A DNA stretch of 64,000 bases. It comes from Amphiscolops sp. MND2022 (Eukaryota). The translations under genes and the position numbers were made by a program. The stretch spans positions 4,962,001 through 5,026,000 of the forward strand of contig OZ076409.1 of NCBI GenBank assembly GCA_964187785.1. The letters run 5' to 3'. A model generated the notes under the pieces. The model had not been told where the DNA came from and made no database searches. It saw only the letters and a program-made list of their open reading frames with translations. Positions 19,037-63,212 of the stretch are shown here, one piece after another. How positions within the stretch are numbered: the stretch's first letter is position 1; every line of letters begins with the position of its first letter.

Positions 19037-19392
19037 AACAAGACGGGAACGTCCCAAGTCGGCGCCATATCTTAGGCTCAAAAATATTCAAGGAACAACT
19101 ATTGGAAAAATTTGGAAAAAAAAATTTTTTCAAAAAAAAATTTTGATTTTTTTTCGAAAAAAAGTATTTTTTAGGTCGCACAATGCCGAAAAACTCATTA
19201 AAAAATTTATGGTTTAGTGCGGGATTCGAACCCACGCTCTCCGGCTGGGTCGAAGATGAAAGATGAACAAATATGAAAGATGAACAAAAATTGTAAGAAA
19301 AGTGGACCACTCAGAGTGAGATTGTCAACTGAAAAAAAAAACTACTCACTGTAAGAGTCGGGCTTTTTTCCTTAAGGGAAAAGGCGCCGACT
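19037..19392 (-). mobile_element. HINE/DINE-1-like non-autonomous Helentron-type element (copy with an empty paralogous site)
   Basis: AACAAGACGGGAACGTC...GGCGCCGACT is present in duplication unit 2 and absent at 14259 in unit 1. Confidence 0.85.
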
Positions 19393-21336
19393 AACAAAAC
19401 AATCGCAGGATGTTAGGTTAAATAAATACCTGTGCGTAGTTTTGACCTGAGCATAATGATAGCGGTTGGAGGTTAGAATTTATAGAGCGCCATTATTATT
19501 CATCTCTTGATAAAATCACCTCAGGTAATTAATACCAAGTGATGAAAACTTCCAACAGCTTTTATTATGGTCAGGTCAAAACACGAAAACTTTAAAAATC
19601 TAATTGAATGTGAGTTCCGATCCTTTCATCCATCAGTCATTAAAAACGCTTGAACAGCCAAGTTGGAGCCCCACTGATTGCTTAAAAACTAATCCAAGCA
19701 TGCCCAGGTGCAACTATTGAAAAAATTCTGAAAATTCATTCGTTTCTTGACCGACAACCGAAAAATAACAAAGGGTTCTTCTTTGGTGAAATGAAAAAAA
19801 TCGAAAAAGTCGCGTAGTGCCGAAAAATTCAAGGTTGCTTAGGTCTCTTCTAACTTTATAGAAGTTTTTAACGGTGTAAAAGTATATATTATTGGAAAAA
19901 AGGTACCTTGCGACGGCAAAGATGAAGTAATTGAATTTATGAAAAATTAATAATAAGCTAAAGGCTAATTATAGACCCACTATCTATGGAAGCGCCGACT
20001 AAAACTGCGGTTGGAGAGCAAACAGAGACTGAAAAGTCTCTCAAGGCTCTTTGTGAATCCACTTCCAGTGTCTCTAAAGGGCATCGAGCGCGACCATTGT
20101 AGTGGACTTTCATCTGTTATTTTTACAATACGTTCGACGTGGTCGAAGTAGTTCTTAAAATAGTTCTCCGTGCCATTAAAAACAGTAGTCGTTATAGGCT
20201 TTCTGTGAAAATTCGAGATTGGTTTTCTGCAAGTTTTTGAGTTTTTCGGCCTTTGTTTACAAATTTTCAGATGGAATTTGGGTCCCGGTCGGTTTAACTT
20301 CTGTTCTCTAATCATTATGCATTCCCTTAATGAACTTCCGTAACTGAGAAAGATCTGTTAGAAACACATTTCCCTGAATTTCTTTTGGTTGAGAACATGT
20401 AATTGAATCAAATATGCATCGCTGTGATAAAAAGTTCATAGAGGCATCGTATGTTTTGGCAACCATTACAATGAATTGGTAATGAGGACTTTTAAAACTG
20501 AGAACTAGTTGAAAAATTTCATCCAATATATTTTTTCACGCTTCGATAGATTGAATCACTTCCAGATTTCCTCTTTTTCCTTAGAGGTGCCATCTTTTTC
20601 TGCGGCTCATTGTTTAAAAGTTCATTTCTTTAAAGCCTTAGGAGCATTGAAAATTTCATTCTACTCTGTGAATGGAGAATCGCTTCCAGTTATCAAATGC
20701 TTAGGAGACCTTATATTTTTTCAATGCCTGAACGGGCCAAATCTAATTACTGTACCATATCATCTATTCCAACACCCCCCCCCCCCCCCCAAAAAAAAAA
20801 AAAACTGCGAAAGGGGGAACTAAGAGAGAAGGTTCAAATACCATTATGTCGACATTGTTTGCGTTGGAATTTTGGTCCAATAAAGTAATTGATGTCGACA
20901 TACTTCTATCCACTACATTGACTGTCAGTTAAAAGTTGCTCATTAGATTTTATAGCGGAAAAAATTCGCGCAGAAATTGGGGCCTTTTTATACGATTTTA
21001 GCTTGTTCCAAACGTAAATTTGGGCTATTTTGGACAATAATATCAAAAAGTTATGGTATTTTTTTAACCTGAAGTGTCCAAACAGTTGTAGAGACAACCC
21101 TCTAAGTATATATATTCATATAATATTCTCTTATTAGTGAAAGATTTTGTTCAAGAGTAAAATGTGCTTTCGTGTTGGGGGGATTCCCAACAAGGTGTAC
21201 CTGGGGGGAATAGATAACATGGTCCTAATTACTCCGCTTCCATGCGTTTTTGAAAGATTTTTCAATGGTGAACCCAAATTGTCTTGAATCCTTAGAGACT
21301 TATAACTAGGAATAGCAACAGTTCGGTTTCCAACAG

Positions 21337-21767: not shown

Positions 21768-21971
21768 AACAAGCCGGGAACTGCCCAAGTCGGTGCCATA
21801 TCTAAGGCTCAAAAAGACTCGAAAACAACTGGAGACAACAAAAGCTCTCGAAAAACTAAAAATTGAGAAAAAAAATTCCGATTTTTTTTGAAAAGTGGAC
21901 GTTACGCGTTGAACTGACGGGAAAAAAACTAGCCACTGTAAGAGTAGGGATTTTCTTCGAAAACGCCGACT
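21768..21971 (-). mobile_element. HINE-like element nested in a TA-MITE
   Basis: Same termini; interrupts a MITE whose intact copy is at 47852-48023. Confidence 0.85.
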
Positions 21972-22025
21972 AAAAAACGCCGGTCCCCGGGCAATCGTTA
22001 TAAGCGGAGTTGAGTGGGAGCCGTA

Positions 22026-23128: not shown

Positions 23129-23489
23129 TTAGTCGGCGCTTTTCGTAGAAAAACGCAGACTATAGTAGTGACTTTTTTGAAGACCAACTAAGTGACAGAT
23201 TTTATAAGCTTTATAAGCTGACTTGAACTAACACTAACTGCCACACTACTTCTACTGGCACTTGAGATAGAGGTTAATTAGGCTTTTTTGAGGTCCCGTT
23301 TTACATTTTTCGGTACTATGCGATTTTCCGGGGACCAAAAAATGACTTGAAAAAAAACTTCAAAAAAATGGATTTTTTTCAATTTTTTCTTATGCGGGTA
23401 CTGTAGAAGAGAATACTTGACACTTTGAAGTCCTTTTGCTATTTTTGAGCCTTAGATATGGCGCCGACTTGGGCCGTTCCCGGCTTGTT
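23129..23489 (+). mobile_element. HINE-like element
   Basis: TTAGTCGGCGC...GGCGCCGACTTGGGCCGTTCCCGGCTTGTT. Confidence 0.8.
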
Positions 23490-23816: not shown

Positions 23817-24143
23817 TTAGTCGGCGCTTTCATTAATCTTTTATTTAAGACAGACTCGAAGCGACAAACGTTAACGTTCAGCTGAAAGAAACTAAACGAA
23901 TACCCGGGAAACTGATCTAAGTTATTCCAAAGAGGTTATTCCAAATAACCCTTTGGTTTTGTATTTTTTAAACGTAACCTACAAAACCGGACTGGACTAA
24001 AGGAAATTTCAATTTTTCGATTTTTTTCCGGCACTGTGCGACTTTTTTTCGAAATTTCTTTTGTCTCCAAAGGGTCCCCTCCTTCGATTTTATTTGAGCC
24101 TTAGATATAGCGCCTACTTGAGACTTCAAGTTCCCGTCTTGTT
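23817..24143 (+). mobile_element. HINE-like element
   Basis: Family 5' end; 3' end ...TTCCCGTCTTGTT. Confidence 0.75.
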
Positions 24144-25238: not shown

Positions 25239-25250
25239 GTTAGTTTTCAT

Positions 25251-26835: not shown

Positions 26836-27057
26836 AAGTACCATCCAAATGAATTTCACTGAGATTATCAAAGAAGAAAGGTGATTTTCCCCAATTCCGC
26901 GGGGTGGACACCGAATAAGCAGTTCTGCTTTTCTAAGTCAGCGCCTTTTCGGATACTATCTCCCCATAGCAAGCTATGGTACCATATCTGCAGCCAAGTG
27001 GTCAAGTAATGGTGGACTTGCAGCCGTGGTTTCAGAGTGACTTGCTCAAGGTCACAA

Positions 27058-27343
27058 AGGAGACACTTCATTGGGTATAAATGTCTCACTTTATATACAA
27101 GACCACAAAACTTATTCAATTTTTTTAGTTATGTACTCAATGTGTTCTCGGAATGTGAGCTTATTGACAATGTAGACACCCAAATACTTGAAACAATTAG
27201 TATTGGGCAACTTTGAATTGAATATTTTAGCATCTTTTATTTTTCCTACGGCAAAATTCTTGCTCTCACATTTTGTGGTGTTTAAGGTAAGTTTGTTCTG
27301 ACAAAACCAGTGTCTGACTCTTTCGTGTTCACTATTTATATCT
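27058..27343 (-). mobile_element. Second near-identical internal fragment of the same LINE RT
   Basis: Matches about 26238-26520 almost base for base. Confidence 0.9.
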
Positions 27344-27367
27344 GAATTCACCCTGCTCACCGTTTCT

Positions 27368-27887
27368 TTAGTCGGTGCTTTTCGTAGCAAACGCAGACTA
27401 TAGCAGTGACTTTTCTTTTTTTAAGACTAACTAACTGACAGATTTTATAAGCTTTATAATAAGCTGACTTGCACTTACACTAAACTGCCACACTACTTCT
27501 ACTGGCACTTGGCATAGAGGTTAAGGTTTTTTTGAGGTCTGCCAAGCAGAAGGACGTGGGTTTGAGTTCCGCCCTTGACCAAAATTTTTTGTGCATGTTA
27601 TTTCGGCTTTGTGAGGCTCTTTTTCGCAAATTATTTTAATGTCTCCAAATGGTCCCCCCTTCAATTTTTCTATTTTGCAAAAGAATGGATGTTCAAAAAC
27701 TCCCAAAGCCCCCCTTTACATTTTTCGGCACTATGCGACTTACCGGAGGCCAAAAAAAGTTTGAAAAAAATCAATTTTTCCCTAATGCGGGTACTGTAGA
27801 AGAGAATACCTGACACTTTGAAGTCCTTTTGCTATTTTTGAGACTTAGATAAAATCTGGCGCCGACTTGGGCTGTTCCCGGCTTGTT
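27368..27887 (+). mobile_element. HINE-like element with a B-box-like segment
   Basis: Both termini present; gggtttgagttcc internally. Confidence 0.8.
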
Positions 27888-32119: not shown

Positions 32120-32683
32120 TTTAGTCAGCGCTTTTCTAGAGAAAAGAGCCCGACTATCACAGTGGCTAGTTTTTAGTCGGCGTTTTTCTAGAAAAGTGCC
32201 CGACACTTACAGTGGCTAGTTTTTTTTTCGTCAGACTACAATCTCACTCTGATTGGGCCACTTTTCTTACAATCGAAACTACTAAAACTACTAGCATAAG
32301 GACAAGTCCGCTCAGCGGAAATTAGTGCAAAAGGGTCCCCCCTTTCATATTTTACTATTTTAACGTAACCTACAAAACCGGACGAGACTAAAGGGTCCCC
32401 CTTTCAATTTTTTCGGCATTGTGCGACTTTTTTCGAAAATTTTTTAAGGTCTCAAAAGAGTCCCCCCTTCGAGTTTTTTGATATTTTGCAACAGAATGTA
32501 TGTTAATGAATCCCAAAGGGTCCCCCCTTTTCATTTTTTGGCACTATGCGACATATTCGAAGTTTTTTCAAAAAAAAATTTTCAAATTTTCTTTTGTTCC
32601 CAGTTGGGAAACAGTGATTTTTTCAATGATGAAAACTTTTTGAGCTTTAGATATAGTGCCGACTTAAGACGTTCCCGTCTTGT
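32120..32683 (+). mobile_element. HINE-like element with a doubled 5' end
   Basis: Two successive TTAGTC(A/G)GCG...CCCGAC heads; 3' GACGTTCCCGTCTTGTT. Confidence 0.8.
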
Positions 32684-33379
32684 TAGCTGTTAATTAACTT
32701 AAAAGATGATGTCCACACAGTTGACACGGTCTTTTTTGGGGGGAGGGGGATGTGAGGCGACTGTGTGGGCCACTCCCATTCTTTGAAAAATTTCAACTGT
32801 GTAACTTGAAAATTTAATGACATTTTTGAAAAGAAATTGAGATTTTCGTTTTTTCCCGGGAGTAATTAGTGTGATGAAAAATTCAACTGTGTAACTGTAT
32901 TTCAAAATTCAAACAGATTCAAACTTGTTCTCGTAAATATTCATTTCGCCTTAATATTTTGTAAACTTGACGAAAAATGTTAACTGTTATGTGATCAAAA
33001 GTTGGAAAAAGTGCCATTTCAGTCATTTTGGTCGTGAAATCGGGTTTTCTAATTTTTGATGTTTTCGCATAAAGTAGCAGGAATAATATAGAAACAGAAA
33101 GGGGAAGTTTTTTCAGAGTGTGTTCGCTAAACGAGTACCTGCTGAAAAAGACTCAAATATTCTATTCGGCAGTGAGTATAAGTGTGAGATATATATATTT
33201 CTCAAGCTGCCGACGACATTATCTGACATAAAGCAATCGTCCGCCACCGTATTGGAGTGCTTGTATTCAAATACGGAAGCGAAACGTCATGTACGCTTCG
33301 TAGCTGTATTGTTTTGTTCAAGTAACAAAGCTTATCGTCCGAAAAGAATCAGACGGTTTGAATTGGTACGCTGAATTGG

Positions 33380-34096
33380 TACTCAAAGTGTCCCCTCTGG
33401 TGCGCCGATTCGGTTCAACTTTTGGGTTTTTTCCGGTACCGTAGAAGAGAATACTTTGACACTTTGAAGTCCTTTTGCTGTTTTTGAGCCTTAGATATGG
33501 CGCCGACTTGGGCCGTTCCCGGCTTGTTTTTCTTCAGACTACAATCCTCACACTGATCGGTCCACTTTTTAGAAACAATCCTGAAACCACCTAAGGGCCC
33601 CAGCCCGGCAAAGGGGCCAAAGCAAACTTAGTGCAAAGGGTCCCCCCTTTCATTTTTTACTTTTTCAAGGTAACCTACAAAACCGGACGGGACTAAAGAG
33701 TCCCCCCTTTCGAATTTTTTTTCGGCACTGTGCGACTTTTTTTTCGAAAATTTTTTTGTCTCCAATGGGTCCCTCCTTTCATTTTCTTACTTTTTTAACG
33801 TAATCTACAAAACCGGCCGAGACTAAAGGGTCCCCGTCTTATGATTTTTTTCGGCAATGTGCGACTTTTTTCGAAAATTTTTTAATGTCCCAAAGGGTCC
33901 CCCTTTGAGTTTTTTGTTATTTTGCAACAGAATGCATGTTTATAAATCAAAAAGCGTCCCCCTTTTGCAGTTTTCGGCACTGTGCGCCATTTTCCGAAAG
34001 AGAAAAATTTTCGAAAATCTCAAGTTTTTTTCCAAAAATGTTTTGCGCTTTTTGAGCCTTAGATATAGCGCCGACTTTAGACGTTCTCGTCTTGTT
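33380..34096 (+). mobile_element. Two adjacent 5'-incomplete HINE-like copies
   Basis: Family 3' ends at about 33527 and 34096, with AAAGGGTCCCCC modules. Confidence 0.75.
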
Positions 34097-34207: not shown

Positions 34208-34360
34208 CCTGTTGTCGTGAAGAGGGAGTGTTTGGGGTGTGCTGTACCATGGTGAAAGAGGCCATCCTCGACTGGGCCTACCGGGTGGCCCGCAGGTACC
34301 GAATGTGGCAGCGCGACTACAACATGTTGGACGCCTCTTACGACGTCGAGCTTGGACCAG
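34208..34360 (+). CDS. Flippase exon ([23 protein letters not shown]...ELGP); in-frame ATG at 34249 is an alternative start
   Basis: Acceptor tttcag, donor g|gtatgc, high GC3; its phase-1 end matches the next exon. Confidence 0.8.
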
Positions 34361-37300
34361 GTATGCACATGTATACAGCTGAATCCGCCTAATTCGTATC
34401 GTTCAGAACTGTACGATAAAACGGTACGAATAAGGAGAAATATGAATTAACCAGAGATGACCATAGCTCGAAATTCTATTATAGCAATGCTATATTAAAC
34501 GCTGTTATTAAAACGGCAGCAACTATTATAGCGGCTATAATATGAACATATATGGAATTTCTATAGTAGAATTCTATAATTGCCGGTATTATTGACCAAT
34601 CATACCTCTCGGTGAATAGAAGAATGAGAATTTTGCCTCGAAATTTGAAAACTAGACTCATCGTTGAATGTTATAATAGTTAGTTCATGGTCTTCAATGT
34701 TTCGTTATTTTTTCAAAAAAAATTTCAACTGTTTTCTCCTTAAGCTGACTACCCTAGATGGGCACAAGGATTGAAGCTATCATCATACTATTGACAAAAA
34801 TTGGATCTATAATAGAATTCTATTTATTTTTAGTCGGCGCATTTTCCTTTAAGGAAAAAAGCCCGACTATTACAGTGGCTAGTTTTTTTTTCTTTTTTTT
34901 TTTCGTCAGACCACAGAGCTCATCGCGTATGTACCACTTTTTACAGAAACTAATAAGTTCACTCAGGCCAGTTCGACCAATGCAAACTTACTGCAAAGGG
35001 TCCCCCCTTTCGTTTTTTACCTTTTTTACGTAACCTACAAAACCGGAAGACTCCAAAGGGTCCCCCCTTTCAATTTTTTTTCGGCACTGTGCGAATTTTT
35101 TTTTCGAAAATTTTTAATTTTTCAAAAGAGTCCCCCCTTCGGATTTTCTGATATTTTGCAACAAAAAGTATGTTAATGAATCCCAAAGGGTCCCCCCTTT
35201 TCATTTTTCGGCACTATGCGACGTTTTCGAAGTTTTTTCAAAAAAAAAATTTCAAAAAAAATTTCAAAAAATTTTTCAAAATTTTTTTGTTTCCAGTCGA
35301 GTCGGGAAAAGTGATTTTCCAGTCATATCGAGCATGAAAGGCACACTTTGGGTGTCTCGAAAGTGTTTTCAAAGCTTTTCATGAATACATCCTGGGCATA
35401 TTTAGAAAACTATGAGCTTTTTGAGCCTTAGATATAGCGCCGACTTTAGACGTTCCCGTCTTGTTAATTAATAGGAAAAGCTATAATAAATTCTATAATC
35501 AATGATTATAGGAATTAACCGAATGATATTACTTTGGTTGTCTTGAAATAAAGGGGAACGTTTATTTAGGCCCGAAAAACTGAGGCCTGAAAATATGTTC
35601 ATTGAAATTTTTATTATAACGTTGTCAGCTATATTCACACACCAAATATCTCGTAAACTGTCACGAATGCAAACATTTGCCAGCTAGGAAAGTTTCTTAG
35701 AATTTTATCTAGTTTACGAAAATGTTCGTTTGAAATTTCTGCAACAATAAAAGTTAGAAATGCAAATTTTGACAAAATTTCATCAAATTTGCACTTTTTC
35801 TTGATTTTCAGTTGAAAAAATATTTTTGGAAACTTTTCAGTCAATCATTTGCCCCCAAATCTCCTGAGGATGCTGATGGGATTTGATCGAGAAATTTTTT
35901 GATTTCAAATAAAAGTCATCAATTTTCTAAATGAAATTCTTATAGCCTATCTTAATACGTGTACTTCAGTGCTGATAGGCACAAAACTTAGTGTATTTTT
36001 TGTGATTCGAAAAAATGCTCGATCAAAACAATTCAGTAGGTTCGGGAGATCATAGGGATTCTTCGAATGAAAAAAATCCAAAAATTCTAATTCTAAGCTA
36101 CTCAATTTTCGAAAAAAAACTAAAATTTCAATTAAAATTTCCTAAAATTTGCATTTTCTAACTTTTTCATTAAGCGTCGTAGAAATTTCAAACAAACAGT
36201 TTCGTAAACTAGTTAAAATTCTAAGAAACTTTCCTAGCTGACAATGTTTCGTAAATTGTGACAGTTTTCAAGATATTTGGATTTAAAATTTGCAATTTTA
36301 AGCAATGGAGTTGCGATATTTTAAAACGCTACTGTATATTTGGGGGCGACTTCTATTCGAAGAAATTCGAGAGGGACCAAAATGTGATGTTACTGATGTA
36401 GATCTTTTTTGTTCAGTGCGTAAAAAGAAGAAACGGTCGTCGGCGGACAGTGGGGGGATAGAAATGCAAAAGCCGCCGACCTCTGAAGAATTGAAGAGTC
36501 GTGAGTTTTACGTGGGCGAACGCAACAACCTCATGCTGTCGAACCAAAGCAGGAAGTTCTGCAGCAACAGGATCCGAACTACCAAGTACTCGCCGCTCTC
36601 GTTCGTGCCCAAATTCCTCTTCGAGCAGTTCCGAAAAGCCGCCAACTGCTTTTTCCTGCTCGTCTCTTTCCTCCAACTCATTCCAGGGGTGTCGCCTACC
36701 GGGAGATTCACTACTTTGGGTCCTCTTACCGTCATTTTGTTCCTCACCGGTAATTATGTAATTATCTCTGTTCATGCCGTTTAGGCAGAAAACTCTGACC
36801 TTTCGAACTTCCAGTAACTTTTAGATTTTGTTCACTCTTGATTGTTCTACGTTGCTGCAGTCAAGTCACGTTTTACCATACCAATCACCTGTTGTTCCTG
36901 GCTGAGAAAAATGGATTGGCTTTGAGCTAAGAGCAGGCTTTTGTTGAATGTTGCTACCAGAGTTTTGACATCGCTAATTTTTCCGCTAATCGCTAAACTA
37001 ATTCCAAAATCGCTATTTCGCTGAAAAACTTTCTGAAAACTATTAAATTCTTGACTTCAAGTTTGTTGTGAATTTAAATGATAATTTTTCATACTGTGTG
37101 GGTTTTACGAGGATAAGAGTTGGATTTTTTCGAAATTCGTTTTGAAACTCCGTGTATATTCAAAAGAAATGTCGAATTTGGACAATCTAATAGTTGTTGC
37201 TAACTTGAATCGCTGATCAAATCGCTTTTAAAAAATTTCGCGCGGCCGCTAAATCGCTAATTAGCAGTGTCAAAACTTTGGCTAAGAGGATACGTTTATT

Positions 37301-40300
37301 GTGCTGGTTAGCTATTCTCCTAATGTTAGATTAATATACGATTTTGCCGATGATGCGAATTCTTCAGCCATTTTCGTGTCCAGCCTTTTTCCCAAAGATT
37401 TAAAAATCTTCGGTAAGTCGCACAGTGCCGAAACAATTCCAAAGTGGGTCCCTTTGGTCTCGCCCTACTTTTGCTAACATGAAAACATGCTCAGGTCATA
37501 ACTAGCTGTTTTTTCGAGCCTTGAAAGAGATCTACGAAGACGTGAGGCGGTGGAAGCAAGACAAGGATCTGAATGAGAAGCGGGTGCGGGTGCTGAGCAA
37601 AGACAGCCACGGCAAGTTCGACTGGGTTGTCACCAACTGGGACCAGCTCAGGGTGGGCAACATCGTCAAGATCACCAGCTCCTCATCGCCCTCGGGGGAC
37701 ATCGGCAACAACTCCCGACTCTCAGCAGACATCCCTGCAGACCTGCTCATACTCGCTACCAGGTAAAAAAAAGGCGGTTGATCTTTTCTCTATCTTTGCA
37801 AGCATAAACAAAAACTTTTGGAAAAGTCTCACAGTGCCGAAAAATGCAAAAAGGGAACCCTCTGCGCTTTCCTCTACCTTTGCGAGAATAAATGAAGACT
37901 TTTGATACTCGCTACCAGTGTATGTACTGTGTGTAGTAATGCGTGTTGCGGCTCCACCCGTTGCCTAGTGGTTAGATACCCCGATTTTCATCCCCGAGGT
38001 CCCGGGTTCGAATCCCGACCAACGCCAATATTCAAACATTTTCACGAAACCCACTCATGCTCAACAAACATACATGTAGGGTTTGGTGAAAATGTTTATG
38101 AATAGTAGCGTCGCATGAGGATTCGAACCCGGTACCTCAAGGATGAAAATCAGGATATCTAACCACCAGGCCACGGATCTGCAACAAAACAAAGGTCGAG
38201 CCGGTCAAAATTGCCCTTTCCGACAATAATATATGCGCGTTTGTTAGTCAGCGCTTTTTTGTAAGTTTAGTCGGCGCTTTTATTAATAAAAGAGCCAGAC
38301 TATTACAGTCACTCGTTTTTTTATTTAAGACAGACTCGAAGCGACGAACGTTAACGTTCAGTGTCTTCAACTAAAGGAAACTAAACGAATACCCCGGAAA
38401 CGCATCTAAGTTATTCCAAAGGGTCCCCCCTTTGGTTTTTTTTACTTTTTAAACGTTGCCTACAAACGCGGACGGGACTAAAGGGTCCCCCTTTCGATTT
38501 TTTTTCGGCACTGTGCGACTTTTTTTTCGAAATTTTTTTTGTCTCCAAAGAGTCCCCCCTTCAAGTTTTTTGATATTTTACAGCAAATTGAAGTTTCAAA
38601 AAGCCCAAAGGGTCTCCCCTTTCAAGTTTTTCGGCACTATGGGACTGGCTCAAAATTCTTATTTTTTGATTTTTCGTTTTTTTTTCTCGAATATTTTTTT
38701 AATGTCTCGAAAGGGCCCCCCTTCAATTTTTAAAATATTTTGTAACAATAGATATTAAACAATCCCAAAGGGTCCCCTATTTTAGATTTTTCGGCACTCT
38801 GCGACTTGTTCTCATTTGGTCAATGTGTACGGCCTTCACTTTCATAAATGATTTCAGCTTGAAAAAATTGATTTGCGAGCTAAAAGTTCCTTTTTCGACA
38901 CTACGAGACTTATTCCCGACAAATACGTTCGAATAAATAGTTCTCAAAAAATGTTTTCTTTGTGTTTCCATTTGGGGAAAAGTGGTTTTTTGAGTCTTAT
39001 GTGTATCCCTTGTTTTTTTCTTCATTCTGCGTGTCACCTTTTTTGTTACAGTTCAGACACGTTTTTGACTCGCCATTTTCGCATACACGGCCCATCGCCG
39101 ACTCAGTTTCAGCTCAAACGTTTGCCTGAAAAACTTTAATGTTTCATGAATGCGTTCTGTTTCAGTGAACTGGAAACTGGCTCATGTACAATCACTACAA
39201 AGAACTTGGACGGCGAAACCAACCTGAAGAACAAGCTAGCCCTGTCTCACACGCACAATGTAGTTATGAGCAGCGTTGGCAGCAACAGGACCAACGAGTC
39301 CAATGGAGCCAACGGCGGCGGCCTGACTGAGACCAAAATCAACAACTCTTTCTATGACTCTGTCGTCACTTCCGAGGCCGCCAACGCAGGTAAGAAGACG
39401 AGTCGTTGATCTCGATTTGCTTCCATTTCACACCTTTTCTGATTATACTTCGGAAGGGATATATACTTATAACACACCCGAATGAAGGAATATATTGCGT
39501 GAAAGTCGGCGCAAAAAAATTGGACACTGGTGAGATTCGAACTCCGTTCTCCTGCTTCGGAAACCAGCGTTCTAATCGCTAGGCCAACTGAAATCTCAAG
39601 GCCAATTTTATACCGGTTGCCGCCCAACCGTTTCTTCGCGTTCGCCTTTGTCTTGAAAAAAGAGTGATTAGATATCTGGCGATTTTAGTCATCTGGAAGC
39701 ACCGATTAAAGGTTGTTTTGGTGGACATTCTATTTAGCGCTTGTTTCCCCAAGTTTCGATCTTTGGTGATGTTAACTGTGTTATTTGGAGCAAGTTTTGT
39801 TTCACTTTTCTGACATCAATAATTTCCAAAGCCATCCAAAAACCTGGTCCGCAAACTTTAACCTCAGTATCTTCAAGTCCAATAAACTATTTATAGCGCG
39901 TTCGAAAAGACAATCAGGGCTATCAAATTGATTCTTGAACTTCGCAGCACAGGCTCCAGACTCCGCATGCCTCGTGTGTCTGACTGCCAGTGCATATCAG
40001 CATGTTTCAAAACATCATTACAGTGCCAAAAGTGGGTATTTTGGATTTTTGCAGTGGAATTCGGTAGACGGCAGTTGTGGAAAGCGTGCAGCGTAATCCA
40101 CTGGCAAATGCTGTTACGTTGCAGTCGAATCCACCTTTTGGCAGATTTCCTTTCAGTGGATGTAACTGTGGACATTGGATTCCAGTGTGGATTTCGGTGA
40201 CTTAATAGCATAAAAGTGTGCTAACCCACTTTTGGCACTGTAATGATGCTATTTTGTGGTCCCGGCTTCTTGATTTCAGAGACATCAAGTCAATAAATCG

Positions 40301-43300
40301 AGAAAATGCTTGCAATGCTATGTAATATTTTCTGAAAATTTATTGAATTTTTTTCACATGTTAAGCTAGTGCCTTCAGAACTTAACAGAAATTAGTTGAT
40401 ACGAAATCGTCCCAATCGTACATTTATGGTTAACATTTCAATTTCGAAAGTTCATAAGTCAAAGTTCATGAAAAAGGGTACTTTTTCAAAAGACGGAATA
40501 ACAAACACTATAGGATGTCTTAGTAGCGACAACCGATGATCATGGAAGGTCTATTTCAACATGCAACACACAAATTCATTGTTTTTTATTATTTTTGCAA
40601 AGCAGGAATAATATTAAAATCTGAAAGTTTTACTTTTTTTCTTGTGAAATTTTTGTTTATCCACTGAAAAATTCGGATATTTTGTACGGCAGTGAGTGTG
40701 AGTGTGAGATTTAAATTTTTCAAGCTGCCGACGACATTTCAATTCTCGTGCGATGAAGCGAGCGAGTGGTGGTTATGCTTTCGTGCGCCGAGTTATTGAG
40801 ATGAAGCGGACGAGTGTTAATTATTCGTTCACCGAGAGCTTCGCCTGCATTCAAATGCGAATGCGAATCTTCTTCTACGCTTAGTAGTTATATTTTCTTC
40901 AGTCCGAGAAGAATTAAAGGCGGTATAAACTGGTTCAGTGATCAATTGTGCGCTAAATAATGATTAAAAAGGAATGTATTGATATTTCAGATATGATTCT
41001 ATTATTGAAAATGAAAGATTGAAGCAGAAATAATTGTGTGCCGGAGGGGCCTATTTTTCGTCGTATTTTTTTTCATGACTCGCATTTTTTAGTCGGCGCT
41101 TTTCGAAGAAAAACGCAGACTATAGTAGTGACTTTTTTTTAAGACCAACGAACTGACAGATTTTATAAATTTTATAAGTTGGTACTAAACCGGCGCGAAC
41201 ACTAAACTGTGTCACGCTACTTCACTGCCACTTGGCCACTACGACTTTTTCGAGGTCTGACGAGCAGAATGACATGGGTTCGAGTCCCGCCATGACCAAA
41301 ATTTTTTTGTGCAAATTTGTTTTTTCGGCTTTGTGAGACTTTTTTCGCAAATATCTCCAAATGGTCCACCCTTCATTTTTTTGTCTATTTTGCAAAAGAA
41401 TGGATGTTAAAAAACTTCCAAAGGGCCCCATTTTACATGTTTTGGCACTATGCGACTTACGGGAGACCAAAAAAATTTTAAAAAATTCAAAAAAAATCGG
41501 AATTTTTTTTCAATTTTTCCTCAAACGGGTACTGTAGAAGAGAATACTTGACACTTTGAAGTCCTTTTGTTATTTTTGAGCCTTAGATATGGCGCCGACT
41601 TGGGCCGTTCCCGGCTTGTTTTAAATAACTGGGCGACCAACTAGCTACTGAAGTTTTAACTTGAAAAACATTGCTGGTTGTGTGAAGTTTGTTGGTGTTA
41701 CAGAAATTCCTCTGGGGCTGATGGAGTGTTCAGAAGCACGTTTCGTCATCAGCTGCGAGAGTCCCCACAAAAACATGGAGGTGTTCAAAGGCCAGCTGAA
41801 GGATTCCAAGAGAAGTAAGTGCAATTCTCTGAATAAGTCTGAACACGAGTCTGGGTCCCCCTCCTTCACTAAGTCGGCTGAAGAGGGAGCCCCCTCGGAG
41901 ACCCACTCCACCCAAGACTCTCTGTCCGTAGAACATGGCAATACCACAAGCGCCTGTAGACACCGCACAAATGCATTGTATATATTTATATGCTTAGATG
42001 TCCTCTATTCAGGAAAAACCATGGTGTCCTGAGTTTTGACATTGCTATTTCTTTTCGCTAATCGCTAAACCGCTAATTTCAAAATAATTATTTCGCTGAA
42101 AAAAATTTTACAAGGGTAAGAATTTGATCTTTTCGATATGTTCGAGGAAATTTTGACTTTGAACAATCTATTAGTTGCCGCTAATTTGAATCGATAATGA
42201 AACCGTTGAAAAAGTTTTGCGCGGCCGCTATTTTGCTAAATCGCTGATTAGCAGTGTCAAAACTGTGACTATGCCCCATGTATAAGCACTTTTTAAAATC
42301 CTAGGCGAGACTTCATATTTTTCAATCAGACTTTCCGATAATTGGTTTCTCCGACGAAAAATTCAAAAATCCTTTTCTCGACTTTGGCTATGAATTAAAA
42401 ATGCTTCGCTCAACTCTTCTTACAATTTGAAATGAACTCATTTTGTTTTCTTTGAATGAATAAGTTTTTTGGTGACACCTTCAATTCAATCCAGTGTTTT
42501 CACTCGCTAATAAAGATTCGCTAACCGATAACCTAGTTTTTAGGGTGCGCGCTATTCGCTTATGAAGACGTGTTCGTATAAATTTGATTTCGTTGTAATG
42601 TTAGAAATAGATTTTCATGTATAAATTTTCCAAAAAAAATTAAAATGAGATTTTTGAACAGTGTCACAGTGCCGAAAAATGTAAAAGGGGGACCCTTTGG
42701 GATTTTCTGACATCCATTGTGTTGCAAAATATCGAAACAAATGAAGGGGACCCTTTGGTGCAATCCAAAAAGTTTCAAAAAAAGTCGCATAGTGCCGGAA
42801 AAAAGTAAGGGGCTAATGGGGGATCCTTAGAGTATTTTCGAGGTTCTGGACGTCTCTTTTGTTTTTCTTTTCATTTTGGACGCGCTTCTGAGGTTCGAGT
42901 GTTTTGAATTTCCGTAGTTCAAGTTGTTGAACAAATGAACAAAAAAGTGGACCTTACGTGTCTAAAAAAACTACCCACTGTAAGAGTCAGGCACATTTTC
43001 TACTAAAATGCGCCGACTAAAAATAGCACTGGGACTTCAAAGTGTCAAGTATTTTTTTTACAGTGGCTAAAAACCCAAATGTTGGACCGAACTGGCGCGC
43101 TAGGTATCGATCGGATTTTTCAAGCGTCCATTTTGCTGCAAAATATCAAAAAAATTAAAGGGACTTTTTTGAGAAAAAAAATTTCGAAAAAAAACTGACA
43201 ATGCCGAAAAAATGAAAGGTGGGACCCTTCAGTCTAGCTCGGTATTGTATGTTACGCTGAAAAGAAGGAACAACTTTTATAGTACAGTTCCTTGAGCCAA

Positions 43301-46300
43301 ATGTTCCAATTTGACACCTCAAAATTTTGTAGAACTTTGTATAACTATTTTGGTCAGTTCGTGTGGATTGAAAAAAGGTCACTATTGCACATGACGAAGT
43401 CAATGTGCATTGCAGTCCAGCTAAGTAAGTTTTTTTCCACTATAGTCAACTTCATAATGAGCGCCTTTTAGATAAAAGCCAAAACCCCAGAGAGATTCGA
43501 ACCTGCAGCCTCCCGATTGCACGGCATAAGTGTTGACCACTGTGCCATAGGGACATTATTGAACAAAGTTGAACTGTTGAATATATACGCATGCGATTGA
43601 AATAATATATACGCATATTAAAATAATCGATGTCTTCGTCATGTGTTGCGAAGCACCGCTTCGCCTCTGTGTAATAGTTGCGTTTCACTTCATGAAGCGC
43701 CGACAAATAATTGAGAAAAGCCTCTTACAGGAATGAGTGAGTGATTTATGATTACATTGAATTGTGCGCGGTGTCTAGCGAGTGGCGAGGGAGGGGCAGC
43801 ATCCAGAAGCAAGTCTGACACATCATCCACTTTGACCACCCTTCTGGACAGCAAGAGTGCAGGGGGGAGCAACGGGGTGGGGGCAGAAGATGTTCTAGTG
43901 CCTCTCAGCATAGACAACCTGTTGCTGCGCGAGTGCAAGATAGAGAACACGGAGTGGGTCATAGGGGCTGTAGTGTACACTGGACCCGAGGCCAAGATAT
44001 CATTGGTTAGTTGGTTGAACAACACTGTGTTTGTGTGTGCAAGGTTGGCTTGGCACGGCATGCTTCAAAACGTATGTTACAAAAGCATTCTATTTTTTTA
44101 AAAGAAAAAATATCGAGATTGATCATTGTTTTGCAACCCAATTTCAGACTTACTTCATTAGATACTGACATGATTCTAGAATATTGCGCAATTTCGACTC
44201 AACCTGTAGTACCCCCTCGTTCGTGTCACCTTGCTGAGAAAAGTAGAAAAATGAAAATCATTCCAGCGTTCTTTTCTTTTTTCATCTCATTTTCGCAAAC
44301 TGAAAGCCTGGATCAAAAATTGGGGGAACTGATTTCAAATGGAAGTCACGGAAATTGTAGTTGTATTATAATCTCGAAATGTTGGTGATGTGTGAACATA
44401 TTTTTGGGGGATTTAAGTGGTGTTTTTTTCTGTTCAGAACAGCAAGAAGGCGCCCCTGAAGCAATCATCTCTTGAGAAAATCACCAACATTCAAGTAAGT
44501 AATCAACTGTTGTTAGTCGGCGCATTTTAGTAGAAAATGTGCTCGACTCTTACAGTGGGTAGTTTTTTTTAGACACGAAAGGTCCACTTTTTTGTTCATT
44601 TGTTCAACAACCTCAAACTTCAACAACTTCAAACCTCAACAACTCCAACCTCAGAAGCGCGTCCAAAACGAAAAGAAAAAACAAAACAGACGTCCACAGC
44701 CTCGAAAACACACCTTAGCCCCACTTTTTTTCAGCACTTTTTTTGAAGTTTTTTGGATTGTACCAGAGGGTCCCCCCTTCATTTGTTTCGATATTTTGCA
44801 ACACAATGGATGTCAAAAAATCGCAAAGGGTCCCCCCTTTTACATTTTTCGGCACTGTGACACTGTTCAAAAATCTCAATAAAAAATTTTTTTTGGGAAA
44901 TTTTTTCATGTCTCCAAAGGGTCCCCCCTTCAATTTTTTTTCAAATTTTTTGCAACCAGCTGGAGTTTCACAAAGCCCGAAGGGTCCCCCTTTTAAATTT
45001 TGAGCCTTAGATATGGCGCCGACTTTGGCCGTTCTCGGCTTGTTCATTCTCGCTTTTCGTGACATTCTGCAGGATAACAAACAAACATACTTTCCAGGAG
45101 TTATCAGCAGGTTTAGTTTTTCAAACCTTTCCTTTTTTGGCTTTAGTAATTGTTTTCTAAGTTGTGAAGATTTTGTTTCGGAATCTAACGCTGCTTAAGA
45201 GCCTCTGGAAAATTTTGGACGGTGACTGTGGGACATTTCCAGTTTTTGCATTTCTCGTCATTTCATCAATCAAATCATAAGTTTCACAAGACGCCCGCTG
45301 TGCACCGGGATACTTTTTGCCTTCAAACTCTAGGGTTTTTTCGAACCTCTGCCTCCTCCTTAGTATTACACGATATAGTTCGGATATAAGGTCAAAAAGT
45401 CGGATATAGCGCAATAATTTCGAACCTCCGGTTCCTCCTTAGTTAAACGAAATACATGAAACGAAACGAATCATGAATTAACAAGTGAAGGCATTAAGCA
45501 GCCGTTACAACTAGAATAGTCAAGTAATTCTAGTGTTATTACTGGTCAAGTGAGGTGAAACTGAGAGGAGACCTGGCAGAATTTGGAAAAAACGCAACAC
45601 ATATCATGATTTTCCTTCCCCCATTTATGGGGCGGAAAATAAAGTCTGCAATCAATTTAATGGAGTTTTTAGTCGGCGCCTTTATTAATAAAAGAGCCCG
45701 ACTATTACAGTCACTCGTTTTTTTCTTATTTTTAAGACAGACTCGAAGCGACGAAATTTTTGTTCAGTTTGTTGAACTAAACAGATACCTCTGAAAGTTG
45801 CATTTAAGTTAGTGCAAAGGGTCCCCCCTTTAGTTTTTCCTTTTATGACGTTACATACATACAAAACCGGACGAGACTAAAGGGTCCCCCTTTCAATTTT
45901 TTTGGCACTGTGCGACTTTTTTTCGATTTTTTTCTTGTCTCCAAAGGGTCCCCCCTTCAAGTTTTTTGATATTTTGCAGCAAACTGAAGTTTCATAAAGC
46001 CTAAAGGGACCCCTTTTACATTTTTTGGCTTTGTGAGATTATTCTAAATGATTATTTTTTGTCCTAAATATTGGTTTTCAAAAACTTTGCGCTGTTTGAG
46101 CCTTAGATTTAGCGCCGACTTTAGACGTTCCCGTCTTGTTTTAGTCTTTGGCTTGCTACCTGTATACAGTAGCGTTCACACCTTGAAAGTACAATTCAGG
46201 AGATCAATAAATTGCCTAAAACCCAAAATTGCCATTGACTTATTATGTACCCTGATTTTTAGTCGGCGCTTTTCTTGAGAAAAAATGTCGACTATAGTCA

Positions 46301-49300
46301 TGGCTGTTCGTCAGTGTTGTTTTTTAGGACCACCTGAAGTTACCAAAATAGTTCTACTAAAAGTTCTACAAAATTTAAAAGAAGGCTCCAAATTGTACCT
46401 TTTGGACCAGGTAACTGAACCAAAAAAGGATTTTCTTTTTTTGCGTAACATACTGTACCGATCGAGACTAAAGGGTCCCCCTTTGTTTTTTCGGCACTGT
46501 GCGACTTTTTTCCACCAAAGGGCCCCCGTTCAATTTTTTTTGAGAATGGATGTTGGAAAATCCCAAAGGGTCCCCCATTTAGTTTTTTCGGCATTGTGAG
46601 ACTTTTTCCAAAAACTTTTTCGGGTGCTGTAGAAGAGAATGTTTTGACGTTTTGCTATTTTTGAGTCTTAGATATGGCGCCGACTTGGGCCGGTCCCGGC
46701 TTGTTGCTTTGAGTCTTGGCTCTGTTCTGAGACCTCACTCCGTAGCATTGTTTAAGAACATTTTGATTGGTCAAGTCGAAAAATACTGTTAAGTCAGTGT
46801 GCCTTTAAAATTTGTTCGAATGATTCAGTGAACTTTTTTTGTTTTATGAAGGGTCATACGAAACTATTGTATGATAAACAAGACTGGAGCGTCTCAAGTC
46901 GACGCCCCTCTTAATGCTCAAAAAGTGTCTTTCGAATATGGTAAAGGGCTGTTTTATGAAAACTCAGTGGCGAAAAAGACATTGAGCGTAAAAGTTTTCA
47001 AAAATGTCTGTTAGACAATAAGGGGGACCCTTTGGCGAATATAAAAATTTTCTGATCGGATAGTGCCAAAAGAAACACTAATGGGAAACCAAACCCTGCG
47101 GCTGTGACATGACTACCAGAACCGTTTTTCAGGCCATTTTTTTCTGATTTCAGAGCAAGATCGTTTTCAAATTCTTTCAAAATGTTTGACAGGGCATTGT
47201 CTAGACCAGGATTGACACAAGAAATGTATTTCTCAAAAATGAACTAAAATGAGACTCATGGTTTGAGGTTATTTTAGCACTTGTCTCGTTTTTTTTTTCA
47301 GATCTATTTCATCCTGGGAATCATGCTGACCCTGGCGTTGGTGTGCTTCGTGGGTGCCCTAGTGTGGGCTGGTCACAACGAGGACGAGACCTCGTTCTAC
47401 ATTCCAGACGAGGACGCCACTGCTGTTGTCAAGAACGACCACGCCCAAAAGGCATTGATGGCCATCCAGAATTTTAAAGAATAAGGCTACCCTTTTCGAC
47501 AATTTTTTCAAAGAAAGAAAATAATGAATTGAGAATCGGTATAAAAATAAATCGATAAAAGGCGGTATGTTCCATTGAACCAAATAGAAATACTAAATGT
47601 TAACCGTGTATGTTGGGAATATCTCCCTAGGATCCCGTCTAGAAAGGGTATTTCGATAATTTTTGAGAAACTGTTTGCAGTCTGTGAGCTTTGGAAAGTT
47701 TGAAAAAAAATGTGGAACTGGAATTTTGGCTTGATTTACAATAAGAAATGTCGGAAAGTTGAAAAAAAACTAAATTCCGAATTTAAATGAAATGAACGAG
47801 CACATTCATTCATAAAAAACGGTAGTGTAAAACAGCAATAAATCAAAAGTACATTCAACTCCGCTTATAACGATTGCCTGTGGACCGGCGTTTTTTAATC
47901 GTTATCCGAATATCGTTATAGGCGAAAATCGTTTTATACTAACATCATGGCCGAGACCGTGAAACTCTATCGCTATAACCGGAATATCGGTATAAACGTA
48001 ATCGTTATAAACGGAGTTGAGTGTAATAAAATTAGGACTAACAATAACTAATCTTTCTAAATTTTAAACGCACATTAAAGATTCAGTTAAAAACGTTAAT
48101 CTTGCCAACATTTTATTCTATGCTCAGGTTGTTTTTTTCCGACCCACATTTTCAATGGGGAGGAAAATCATAATCTGTGTTGCGTTTTTTCCAAATTCTG
48201 CCAAATCTCCACGCTCCATCACTTGACTATTTAGTTACTTGACTATTTTAGTAGGAGGGGGAAATAAGATCTAGTCAAAAAAGGGAATAAGATCCAAAGG
48301 GAACAAGATCTAAAATTTCAGGACGGGAATAAGATCTGAAGGGAATAAGATCTAAAATCACTAAATTTTAGATCTTATTATTTAGATCCTACTCCCCTCC
48401 CAAAATAGCTATGGCTCAAGTGATGAAGGCGAAAAGGGAGGAAAATATCCCGGTGCTTAGCGGGCGTCTTGTTCAATTTTTCTCTTTGATTTGAGAGACT
48501 AAGAAAAGTTTCAATTAAAGAAAGTGCTTATATTGAAATCTGGTAACCAAATCGTCAACAAAATGTATGTTTTCAAGTCTACGGGTTCAACAATGACAGT
48601 CAAGTCCTGTATAGTGCAAAATTATTACCAATTCCGAAAAATCATTGATTTTATTTGTGCAGAACTAAACGCAGTCTCTCAATTCCGGAAATATACTTGA
48701 AAGGCTTTAGTAGTAATAAGGTGAGCCGACAAGTAACAAGATAGGACATCTACACACAGTTTCACCCAAGGTCATCGTAGTAGTGTGATGATATATGTAC
48801 TGGGTCCGAAGTTCGAATCCGGGGCTCTGAAAAACATATTTTGCTGTTTTTCAAACCCCGAGGACCGCATACATACATATACCATGTTTATTGGGAACTT
48901 ATTCAAGCTAAATCATTCATGAATATTTCGCGAATCATTCAGTGATTCAATTATTCGATGATCGAATGCAATAAAATTCCGGAGTTTCATCATACATATA
49001 CCCCAAGTTTCGCATTATTTAGGCTATCTCTGCCAGCATTTTATGGAGTTGGGAAAACACTCTATCTTGCCATGAGATGTAAATAGCCGATCTTGGAGAA
49101 TTCAATGTAGAAGCGCGAAAACACCAATTGGTTAATCAAAAGTTGTTGGAACTTTTCGACTATTATAATTCAAAAAATAACGACCCTGGCATATACAAAC
49201 GCATTATTACGATGACCTGATGACCTTTTTTCGGTTTCCTTCGGTTGAATCATGTGTGAATAACTTCAGGATGTTCGAAGGGGAAAAATGTCCGAAAACA

Positions 49301-52300
49301 TCCAAACACGGCCTTCCACCCTTTAAGCTTTCGAAACCTTTCCCGAGTCAATCACAAGCGCAATAAGTGATGAACGTTTTTTGGGAAAACCTTGTTTCCT
49401 GTTAATAAGGGATGGCCATGACTGCGGTGTTGATCTAGGCACTAATCTACGCAACGTTCTTCATCCTGTTTAACAACTTGGTACCGATTTCGCTGATGTA
49501 CACAGTGGAGATGGTGAAAATCATACAAGCATACTTCATCAACTCGGTCAGTTAGTTAGTTCGGCTGCCTTTTCGTGACCATTGGGAACTTTTCTATCGT
49601 TTCAAATGTCAGGATGTCACCTCTCTTGCTTACCTCGTAGTGGGTTGGGACCATATGTCGTACCCCCCAAGTGGCCGCAAGGGGGAAATAAGACACAAGG
49701 TTCAAATACCATATGTCGACATCGTTTGAGTTGAAATTTTGGTCAATAAAATAATTGATGTCGGCATAATCCGCATTTTAAAAGAGTGAACATTTAAAGC
49801 AAAGCTTCAATTAATTTTTATATGATATGAAATATTTATTAGAGTTTTGACTGTTTCTTTTCAAAAAATGTTTGAGCTGTTGCTATTTTTGGAAAATCAA
49901 AATATACTGGCTTCTACAAATCAAAATACTGTCTCGAAGCGCCGAAAATTTTCCCCGTTTTTTGAACTTTTGCCTTTATTGGAATAAATTTCTAAAATTT
50001 CTCTAATTTGATTGAATTGACTGCAAAGCTACGACGCTATTCATACATTTTTATGTAGTTTGTGTTGTAGGACCCGCAGATGGTGTACAACTTGATTGGG
50101 GCCAAAGCCAGGACTTCTAACTTGAACGACGAGTTGGGACGAATCAAGCACGTCTTCTCGGACAAAACAGGTACCCTGACTCAAAACAAAATGGAGTTCA
50201 AGAAGTGCTTCATCCACACCACTGCATTCGACACTGAAGCAGGTTAGTACACTCACTCCCCTCTCCTTCCGATTACCAGAAAACTCTACACAACAAAATT
50301 CAACACAAAAAATTGCAACTTCTCGTATAACTTATTCGTTTCACTTTTCACGAAAATTGTGCACAATGGTTTAGTAATTAGTTGATAGTTTTGTGAATCA
50401 TTGTAGAAATAGAATAGTAACACTGAATATTTTCGTTATATGTAAATATAATTGAACGAGGCATTGGTATAACCGAGTGCGAACATAAAAAATCCCAAGT
50501 CACAAATTAGTTAATTAAATGAGACATACTCAAATAAATATGTAAATGAGTTCGAAAGTTTGTTGAATTTTCTGTGTTGAGTTTTCTTGTGATTAGTTTT
50601 CCGTACCCCCTCTTTCCACCTCGCCAATCAATCTACTGCTGCTGAAAATTGAACCTGACTCAATGAAATGAACTGCTTAGAATTCGGTTCCGAATCAGTG
50701 TTGTTACATTGTTGAAAAAAATTCGTGGATACCAACTGTCTTATTTTGTATGAATTTAATCACAATTATTCAGTCATATGGTTATTGTGAATTTGAAAAG
50801 ATTTGGAATTTTCACCATATGGTTCAACCATTCGTTAAACAATTGGTTAACTGTGATTCGAATAACTAATTGGTTATGAAAGAAACAAACTGTTACGAGT
50901 TGCTGGCATGCTTAGTATGCTAAGATCCAAATAATGTGGAAAACAATCCAGTCAGTAATGGGTGCTTCCCTTGTGCCATTCTTCAATGTGTAATACAAAG
51001 TTGTTTTTGGGCAAGGTGTTTATTTTTTTGTTTAGAAAATTGACGCACAAATGATTGATCAAGGGCTCTGTTCTACTAGCACCAAACACATAAGACTATG
51101 ATCGATGCTCTGCAGATGCTGAATGGATATTTGAACAAAACGAGAACGTCCAAAGTCGGCGCTACATCTAAGCTCAAAAAGCGCTGTTTTTAAAATACGC
51201 GTTGGACGTTTTCATGAAAAACTCCTGTTTTCGAACCCCCGCCTCCTCCTTACTAAAAGGCAATATAGTTCGGATATAACGTCAAAAGTTCGGATACAGC
51301 GCTTTATTCCGGATAATAAGAGGGAAGACTTCAATAAAAACGACGGGGGGACCCTTTGGAGACAAAAAATTAAAAAGTCGCACAGAGCCGAAAAAAATTG
51401 AAATGGGGACCCTTCAGTCTTGTCCAGTTTGTATGTTACGTTTAAAAATTAAAAAAAAATGAAAGGGGGATCCTTTACAATAACTTATATGCGTTTCCCA
51501 CGTATTCGTTTAGTTGAACAAACTGAACAGAAATTTTGTCGCTTCGAGTCTGTTTTGAAAAAAAAAGACGAGTGACTGTAATATTCGGGCTCTTTTAATT
51601 AACAAAAGCGCCGACTAAAAACCTGTTGTCCTTGAAATCACGATCGCAATTCGTTCAAGTTTCCCAATCTTGAAAAGTCTCATCAAATCCTTTCCAAATA
51701 AAGATCGTTCTACTTCAATGGTTTCTTCCAGTTTTTTCCCAACATCAATTAAATAAATCAGGGGATTAGTTAATGAAGAACTTGTGATTTGTTCAGAACT
51801 GACCAAAGATTTCGTGGAGCAAAACTTCGTACAGCGGGACTCAAACACGACTGCCTCGCTGCTGCACGAATACCTGTTGATGATGGCGATTTGCAACTCT
51901 GTCACCCCAAACGAGAAGGCCCACGCCGGCTTCATCTCAAACTCCCCTGACGAACATGCTCTGGTGCTGGGCGCCAAACACTTAGGTACAGGTTTCATAA
52001 TTACAAGCCCTTTTCATACTAATAAAAGCCGCGGCTTTTTTGACCTCTGTGGAATGAATGATTGCGGCTTTTATCCGAATTGATACTGTACTTCATTCTA
52101 TGAACCCCACTGTAGTGTCTGGAGCTACAATGTGTGCACATTTTTGCTTCAAGGCTGCTTTCAAAGAACATTTGAAATTGCGACAAAGCTAACAAATTTT
52201 GACACCCAAAATTTGAGATATTTTTTAGGTACGTGGAAAACGATTGCCTAATATGAACTTAGTGCCTACATCTTCCAGTTAAGATACCACAAACTTTGAA

Positions 52301-62709: not shown

Positions 62710-63212
62710 TTAGTCGGCGCTTTTATAAATAAAAGAGCCCGACTATTACCGTCACTCGTTTTTTTTCTTTAAGACAGACTCGAAGCGACGAACGTTAAAA
62801 TTAACGTTAAACTACTAAATACAGTACTAAACTACTGGACCGGCAAAGACAAACGGGGAGCGCATTTAGGATAGTGCAAAGGGTCCCCCCTTTCAGTTAC
62901 TCCATTTTTATCGTAAGATACAAAACAGGACGAGACTATAGGGTTTGAGTTTTTTTCGTGTTTTTTTGTCTCCAAACGGTCCCCCCTTGAAGTTTTTTGA
63001 TATTTTACAGCAAATTGAAGTTTCAAAAAGCCCAAAGGGTCTCCCCTTTCAAGTTTTTCGGCACTATGAGACTGGCTCAAAATTCTCATTTTTCGATTTT
63101 TCTTTTTTTTTACAAAAAACCCAAAGGGTCCCCCCCCCCTTTTACAATTTCAAAAAGTTTGAGCTTTTTGAGCCTTAGATATGGCGCCGACTTTAGACGT
63201 TCCCGTCTTGTT
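62710..63212 (+). mobile_element. HINE-like element
   Basis: Both termini; same subfamily as about 38266-38800. Confidence 0.8.

Follow-up and report, generated by a model that had tools for sequence, protein, structure and literature searches.

A high-copy family of probable HINE-type, Helitron-like elements in a 64-kb window of the acoel Amphiscolops

The locus

The window analysed here is a 64-kb stretch of DNA from the acoel Amphiscolops sp., the right half of which is occupied by a gene for a P4-type phospholipid-transporting ATPase identified by Pfam. Coding exon 1 (34249..34360, forward strand, start codon at 34249) is followed by a phase 1 intron (34361-36416) and by exon 2 from position 36417. 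A search with one P4-ATPase exon returned two proteins, the only named one of which, 61% identical, comes from the acoel Convolutriloba macropyga, and exon 1 (34258-34359) matches the N-terminal tail of the C. macropyga protein (59% over 34 amino acids, E 6e-10).

Intron 1 harbors a complete copy of a dispersed repeat, 34830..35465 on the forward strand, which is 636 bp long when both flanking TT dinucleotides are counted. On its 5' side stands a target pentamer of the form TT(T/G)TT, here TTTTT (34827..34831), the last one or two T's of which may belong to the element. The 5' subterminal inverted repeat (subTIR), AGTCGGCGC (34832..34840), and a partial inverted copy of it, GCCCGACTA (34861-34869), are predicted to fold, together with an inner stem, into a hairpin at 34831..34869 (-12.7 kcal/mol, z -6.1). 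Four central modules of about 60-70 bp, each starting with AAAGGGTCCCCC, extend over 34995..35254; they begin at 34995, 35055, 35125 and 35185, and the spacing of 60, 70 and 60 bp makes up roughly a 130-bp dimer. The copy ends in a conserved 48-bp 3' block (35418..35465) that comprises the 3' subTIR, GCGCCGACT (35437-35445), a 5-bp hairpin (35448-35461) and the terminal TTGTT (35461-35465). All of these features are in the forward orientation, and the head, inverted copy, modules, hairpin and TTGTT end that the first-pass annotation had described for this copy are confirmed. Downstream of it, the same intron contains a separate element with long inverted arms at 35650-35800 and 36123-36280 (82% identity over 159 bp).

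Family census and anatomy

One family is represented in the 64-kb window by 25 heads and 22-24 tails, which bears out the earlier estimate of about 25 or more copies or fragments. The head motif TTAGTCGGCGC has 30 matches with at most one mismatch, 16 of them exact and three of them reversed tails, against a chance mean of 0.35 for the window; the 48-bp tail has 24 matches, compared with none in 20 Markov-simulated sequences, and the central module has 61, where the chance mean is 0.2. Heads are on the forward strand in 14 of 25 cases, so that the family is present in both orientations. We assembled 17 distinct head-tail pairs as copies, ranging from 206 to 1023 bp, one of which (32121-32684) was later recognized as two nested copies; two further copies beyond these pairs stem from a tandem triplication.

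Complete copies besides the focal one lie on the forward strand at 23129..23489, 23817..24143 (with a 5-nt insertion in the 3' hairpin), 27368..27887, 41089..41620, 44513..45044, 45669..46140, 46259..46705 and 62710..63212, and on the reverse strand at 19037..19394 (no modules), 21768..21973 (the shortest, 206 bp), 51134..51618 and 53948..54427. Further forward-strand copies are 8374..8780, with a degenerate tail, and 38244..38811, with a partly doubled head and no tail; the longest copy (56873..57895, forward strand, 1023 bp) has a degenerate head and is repeated in tandem at 58605-59626 and 60336-61357.

BLAST searches with the 17 copies assign 14,930 bp, or 23% of the window, to the family. 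The repeats had been said to account for much of the intron length; with exon limits that are approximate, the share amounts to 36% of the P4-ATPase intron sequence as far as the last mapped exon, or 32% once the two extra tandem copies are left out. The longest ATG-started frames in the 17 copies measure 5-111 amino acids, and the counts and the absence of long frames together support the earlier description of a high-copy, non-coding family.

Identity among copies ranges from 18% to 82% (median 53%) over the full length and from 62% to 98% (median 78%) over the last 60 bp, and conservation drops to background 40-60 bp inward from the ends. What the copies share is their ends, with interiors that resemble one another only loosely. 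Conservation peaks at the 3' end, and several of the window's tails have no head.

The subTIRs, 9-10 bp long, are perfect over 9-10 bp in 11 of 17 copies and shorter in the other six. The 5' subTIR directly follows the left TT, and the two ends are asymmetric because the 3' subTIR lies 20 nt inside the right end in 16 of 17 copies. A significant 5' hairpin (z<-2) was found in 16 of 25 heads, compared with two of 60 random 42-mers, and was kept while the inner stems differ between copies; the remaining nine heads have no significant hairpin. The 3' hairpin consists of 4-6 pairs, with 93% of cells paired and none of 500 shuffles as good, and folding of the last 22 nt is strongly favored (z -4.4), whereas the full 51-nt 3' region does not outperform its shuffled versions in folding (z -1.5). 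Among the 20 distinct tails, 11 have A-T and 8 have C-G at one 3' hairpin pair, a compensatory swap that is probably a single event inherited by two subtypes; nothing convincing in the way of covariation was seen in the subTIR pair.

The modules are degenerate, about 60 bp apart, and number 0-4 per copy: ten of the 17 head-to-tail copies have three or four, three have one and four have none. No unit of 2-5 bp is repeated four times in any of the 17 copies. B-box-like 9-mers occur in four of 17, which is near chance; ARAGORN found no tRNA genes, and Rfam matches fall only outside complete copies. The first-pass annotation had credited the family with the full DINE-1 architecture. The general layout is indeed that of HINEs and DINE-1; what does not hold is the detail, with a subTIR of 9-10 rather than 13 bp and no GTCY microsatellite. 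Likewise, the partial inverted copy behind the head is real, with a significant hairpin in only those 16 of 25 heads, and the reiterated central modules vary in number as described while being absent from four of the 17 copies.

Target sites

To avoid circularity, heads were sought by a 9-bp core that excludes the TT. This core gave 60 matches, 29 of which were classed as heads; four were then dropped, namely reversed tails at 28618 and 46897 and unrelated matches at 4961 and 39504. TT precedes 24 of the 25 remaining heads and AA none. The full pentamer TT(T/G)TT precedes 21 of 25, compared with 12% of TT sites in the window, and is TTTTT in 18 cases (two of them tandem duplicates) and TTGTT in three. 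At the other end, TTGTT is found at a fixed distance in 18 of 22 tails, and a 5-nt insertion shifts it in one further tail; no constraint is seen on the base that follows the right TT (T in 10 of 22, against a background of 43%).

Direct repeats at the junctions of the 17 copies consist of T's only, the longest being 2 bp in 12 copies, 3 bp in three and 4 bp in two. Consistent target site duplications had been named in the first-pass annotation as evidence that would speak against its reading; in the 17 copies, the only duplication that may be present is one of T's. Empty-site joins were sought for all 17, and two were clean, one was too diverged (71-74%), and the rest gave none or self-matches. 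The empty site for the copy at 19037-19394 lies at 14199..14320 on the reverse strand, is 98% identical, and has a single TT at 14259-14260. That for the copy at 21768-21973 lies at 47852..47945 on the forward strand, is 92% identical, and has six T's, two fewer than both filled junctions summed. Compared with the filled sites, both lack the element and two T's, with no other change at the target, and at both the left pentamer is host DNA.

The element is inserted between T and T, which is formally equal to duplication of a TT target, and the two T's fit either description; the same duplication-or-not ambiguity at TT flanks has been described for DINE-1 (Yang and Barbash 2008, PMC2374699). The TT target proposed earlier is supported by the 24 of 25 heads and by the two empty sites. 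Beyond this, insertion is strand-specific, occurring after TT(T/G)TT, a sequence that resembles the element's own end, TTGTT.

Nesting, duplications and age

Several copies are inserted into one another. In a nested cluster on the forward strand (32121..34096), the head T-tract of an outer copy (32121-32172 plus 33529-34096) is split by a unit of 1356 bp (32173-33528), removal of which leaves the outer copy aligned without a break over the join. The unit is made up of a complete copy (32173-32684), a stretch of other DNA of about 700 bp, and a second copy represented by its 3' part. Such a composition fits end bypass, and serial insertions followed by a deletion are an alternative that the data also accommodate. 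The cluster ends 153 bp upstream of the P4-ATPase start codon (34249) and may therefore be part of the promoter or of the 5' untranslated region. On the reverse strand, a tail-less copy (42616..43020) sits inside the TTTTT that immediately precedes the 3' block of a second copy (43021 to about 43370), and two copies at 54872..55671 are arranged head-to-tail with one TT common to both, the junction at 55371-55372 reading TTGTT-AGTCGG.

A tandem duplication of about 4.8 kb (9759-14535 and 14528-19673), 99% identical, supplies one of the two empty sites; it is either real or may represent two alleles assembled in line. Since the copy at 19037..19394 is present in only one of these units, it is young or allelic. 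A second tandem array, in a P4-ATPase intron (56212-61413), contains three units of 1.73 kb (98-99% identity) with one family copy each. We considered this triplication as a rolling-circle concatemer and rejected the idea, as the unit ends are not at element ends. The family is real, abundant and recently mobile.

Search for a coding partner and database matches

The Pfam scan covered 166 frames of the window, that is, 16 ORFs and 150 of the 234 stop-to-stop frames of at least 60 amino acids outside the family, the remainder of the 234 being mostly duplicated and exon-overlapping ones. It detected no RepHel partner in these 166 frames; apart from parts of the P4-ATPase, the matches were a single RVT_1 fragment and a few hits below the cut-off. 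A candidate 6.8-kb autonomous copy, with a head at 6993 and a tail near 187, was discarded, as the frames scanned between them have no Pfam match. The tail pattern had no matches in viral and metagenome collections, nor did the module pattern in viral, metagenome and prokaryote genome collections, all of them non-animal.

Translations of the repeat, by contrast, match at least 1231 protein clusters in public data, and all 158 clusters tested match copies in the window. The best 150 of the 1231 clusters are all 55-243 amino acids long, and the 120 listed of 713 clusters are all unnamed and without Pfam domains. Being short, unnamed, devoid of domains and matched by window copies, these clusters are most likely false gene calls on the family, and their source may be the same organism. 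Pfam searches of 31 longer repeat-derived proteins gave no family above the cut-off and no RepHel. Nine longer proteins examined for RepHel fused to a repeat translation have no Pfam domains. In the ESM Atlas, the best score was 0.79, which is uninformative.

Read-throughs in 273 database proteins derived from the repeat allow the junctions to be compared at other loci. Where the tail is read in antisense, the residue expected from TGT is present in 32 of 32 proteins and 31 of 32 are compatible with the final T; in another frame, the residue expected from GTT is present in 12 of 13, and the residues beyond are unrelated. Read-throughs of the head require T at -2, -3 and -5 in 10 of 11 cases in one frame, the eleventh (P0156) joining head straight to tail, i.e. 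a tail-head junction; in another frame, three of five fit. At the level of these predicted translations, the independent loci agree with the target and end rule.

Discussion

Taken together, the asymmetric ends, two hairpins, non-coding interior, T-T junctions, strand-specific target, self-nesting and the arrival of one copy later than a 99%-identical duplication make it probable that the family consists of non-autonomous transposons of Helitron-like group 2 (HLE2, HINE-type), an assignment by the ends, which do not separate Helentron from Helitron2. Matching features have been described for HLE2, HINEs and DINE-1 (PMC4067079, PMC2374699, PMC7492417, PMC11417382). Against this reading stand the lack of RepHel among the 166 window frames and 31 repeat-derived proteins, the subTIR of 9-10 bp compared with 11-15 bp in published elements, and the formal equivalence with TT duplication. 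A canonical Helitron (HLE1), with 5' TC, 3' CTRR and insertion between A and T, was rejected, given ends of TT-AGTC and CTTGTT and T-T junctions.

We infer a rolling-circle mechanism, in which the partner may be a Helentron. By analogy with known biology, RepHel (an HUH nuclease joined to a helicase), supplied by an autonomous partner elsewhere in the genome, would bind the subTIRs or hairpins, peel off one strand and close it into a circle with the junction TTGTT-AGTCGG, which would then be joined into a host TT(T/G)TT. Such targets could be preferred because they are like the element's own 3' end, in which case the new 5' junction would rebuild the circle junction that the enzyme cuts. A joined-end circle has been detected by PCR for FoHeli1, a fungal HLE2 (PMC5148889). 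Copy-and-paste amplification, while the sequence between the ends was free to turn over, would have led the family to fill about a third of these introns.

The same features can be read in other ways. Inverted repeats at both ends, with TT on either side and one TT at the empty sites, are also what a MITE would leave behind if it were mobilized by a DDE transposase of the cut-and-paste type, with duplication of TT, and DINE-1 itself was long regarded as such an element (PMC2374699). We consider this origin quite unlikely: the 3' repeat lies 20 nt inside the end, the interiors are heterogeneous while the hairpins are kept, and none of the 25 heads follows AA, although a symmetric transposase should give both the TT and the AA orientation. 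Similarly low is the probability we attach to a single-strand element of a different HUH enzyme, Replitron-like or undescribed, for which TT(T/G)TT...TTGTT would be short terminal direct repeats. Replitrons have such repeats, a right-end hairpin and orientation-specific insertion (PMC10288648), the target pentamer of the family does match its end, and its subTIR is shorter than in described HLE2. However, the left pentamer is host DNA at the two empty sites, the combination of subTIRs with a 5' partial inverted repeat is the DINE-1/HINE layout, and Replitrons were described in that source from algae, plants and protists.

The conservation of the 3' end, the highest within the element, the headless tails and the presence of decayed LINE reverse transcriptase fragments in the window would suit a SINE-like retroelement with a conserved 3' tail recognized by a LINE. 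This is very unlikely: the 5' end is fixed and linked to the 3' end through the inverted repeat, target duplications of variable length are absent, the copies do not end in poly(A) or in a tandem tail, complete copies match neither tRNAs nor Rfam models, and B-box-like 9-mers occur at a frequency (4/17) near chance; moreover, the sole reverse transcriptase match among repeat-derived proteins (P0024) is flanking host DNA on the opposite strand. Least credible is a dispersed satellite or assembly artefact not itself mobile. Tandem central modules are compatible with a satellite, and the two near-identical tandem duplications could be assembly errors, yet sharp common boundaries in unrelated flanks, both orientations and four complete copies without a module speak against it, and the empty sites largely refute it.

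Returning to the HLE2 reading, the closest published parallels share the layout and differ in the particulars. DINE-1/INE-1 of Drosophila has subTIRs, a partial inverted repeat by the 5' subTIR, conserved end blocks, variable central repeats, a 3' stem-loop after the 3' subTIR, no ORF and TT flanks. Its subTIR, by contrast, is the 13-bp ATACCCGTTACTC, unrelated in sequence to the 9-10 bp of the family; its 3' stem is 7-11 rather than 4-6 bp; it has a GTCY microsatellite in block A, absent from the 17 copies here; and in D. yakuba it is reported to insert after the second base of WTTTT, whereas the T-run of the family lies 5' of the element (PMC2374699). By this published description, which also includes a conserved core of about 90 bp, the family is not DINE-1 proper. 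The HINEs of mite, Culex and Drosophila (Thomas et al. 2014, PMC4067079) are likewise non-coding, with subTIRs, a 3' palindrome, T-rich targets, unmodified empty sites and side-by-side clustering; in the mite, however, palindromic subTIRs of 12-15 bp lie at 38-60 bp from the 3' end, compared with a length of 9-10 bp and a distance of 20 nt in the present family, and these HINEs are tied to Helentron partners, whereas our family is known from non-autonomous copies alone. Cg_HINE of the Pacific oyster, as described in PMC7492417, shares the 5' subTIR with a complementary repeat, the 3' subTIR with a palindrome, central tandem repeats and TT insertion with no duplication, and differs in subTIRs of 11-12 bp, a microsatellite and satellite-like arrays, in place of up to four degenerate modules. 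FoHeli1/2 of Fusarium oxysporum have asymmetric inverted repeats, self-insertions and a target consensus that is extended 5' of the element (TNAT followed by A); unlike the family, they are fungal, autonomous, several kb long and have another target and other ends (PMC5148889).

We found no description of an acoel Helitron or HINE in the papers surveyed. The word 'Helitron' is absent from the accessible main text of three acoelomorph genome papers (PMC6451197, PMC9911081, PMC13650328), occurs only within a reference in that of PMC10565955, and has no match in one supplement file of PMC9911081 (2,350 characters, which may not be the repeat table). The HELIANO supplement contains no acoel names. 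HELIANO seeks inverted repeats of 11-18 nt beside a transposase (PMC11417382) and could, for that reason, miss the ends of this family. In acoel genome papers the emphasis is on LTR retrotransposons, and about a fifth of the sequence stays unclassified: 20.4% in P. naikaiensis (PMC6451197), and over a fifth in the nemertodermatid N. westbladi (PMC10565955). In a more far-reaching scenario, the family would be a large component of acoel genomes that has so far escaped classification, and its mobility would depend on an atypical single-strand transposase, either a divergent HLE2 RepHel or some other HUH enzyme. This enzyme would choose targets like the element's own TTGTT end, act on subTIRs shorter than current HLE2 finders can handle, and carry flanking DNA along by end bypass (32173-33528); we regard this extended scenario as improbable.

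The element class itself is already well described, and the family is a new example of it from an acoel; if the HLE2 reading is true, HINE-type rolling-circle elements extend to acoels. At about one tail per 3 kb, the family shapes intron size here, and a tenth of the window density over a genome of about 1 Gb would, by extrapolation, correspond to tens of thousands of copies. At least 1231 protein clusters in public data would, if they are indeed false gene calls, be spurious products of its open frames, and the match between target and element end provides a simple, testable rule for HLE2 target choice.

Other features of the window

Two regions, 24910-25243 and 39886-40220, have opposed open frames of about 105-110 amino acids with exon-like composition and no Pfam match in the frames scanned. 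Decayed fragments of a LINE-type reverse transcriptase are found on the reverse strand at 25708-27420 (RVT_1, E 5e-7 at 26613-26855), a region that carries a 287-bp internal duplication (97%). A similar motif occurs in the database protein P0024, the LINE reverse transcriptase frame of which is broken by a family tail; the reverse transcriptase match is flanking host DNA past the tail, on the opposite strand. Finally, two tRNA-like stretches on the forward strand, 10528-10599 and 15297-15368, match the Rfam tRNA model at 29.3 bits each, the former being followed by module fragments of the family, and others were noticed by BLAST or by eye at 8860-8960, 38112-38175, 39480-39600 and 43440-43600; these stretches are probably tRNA-derived SINEs.
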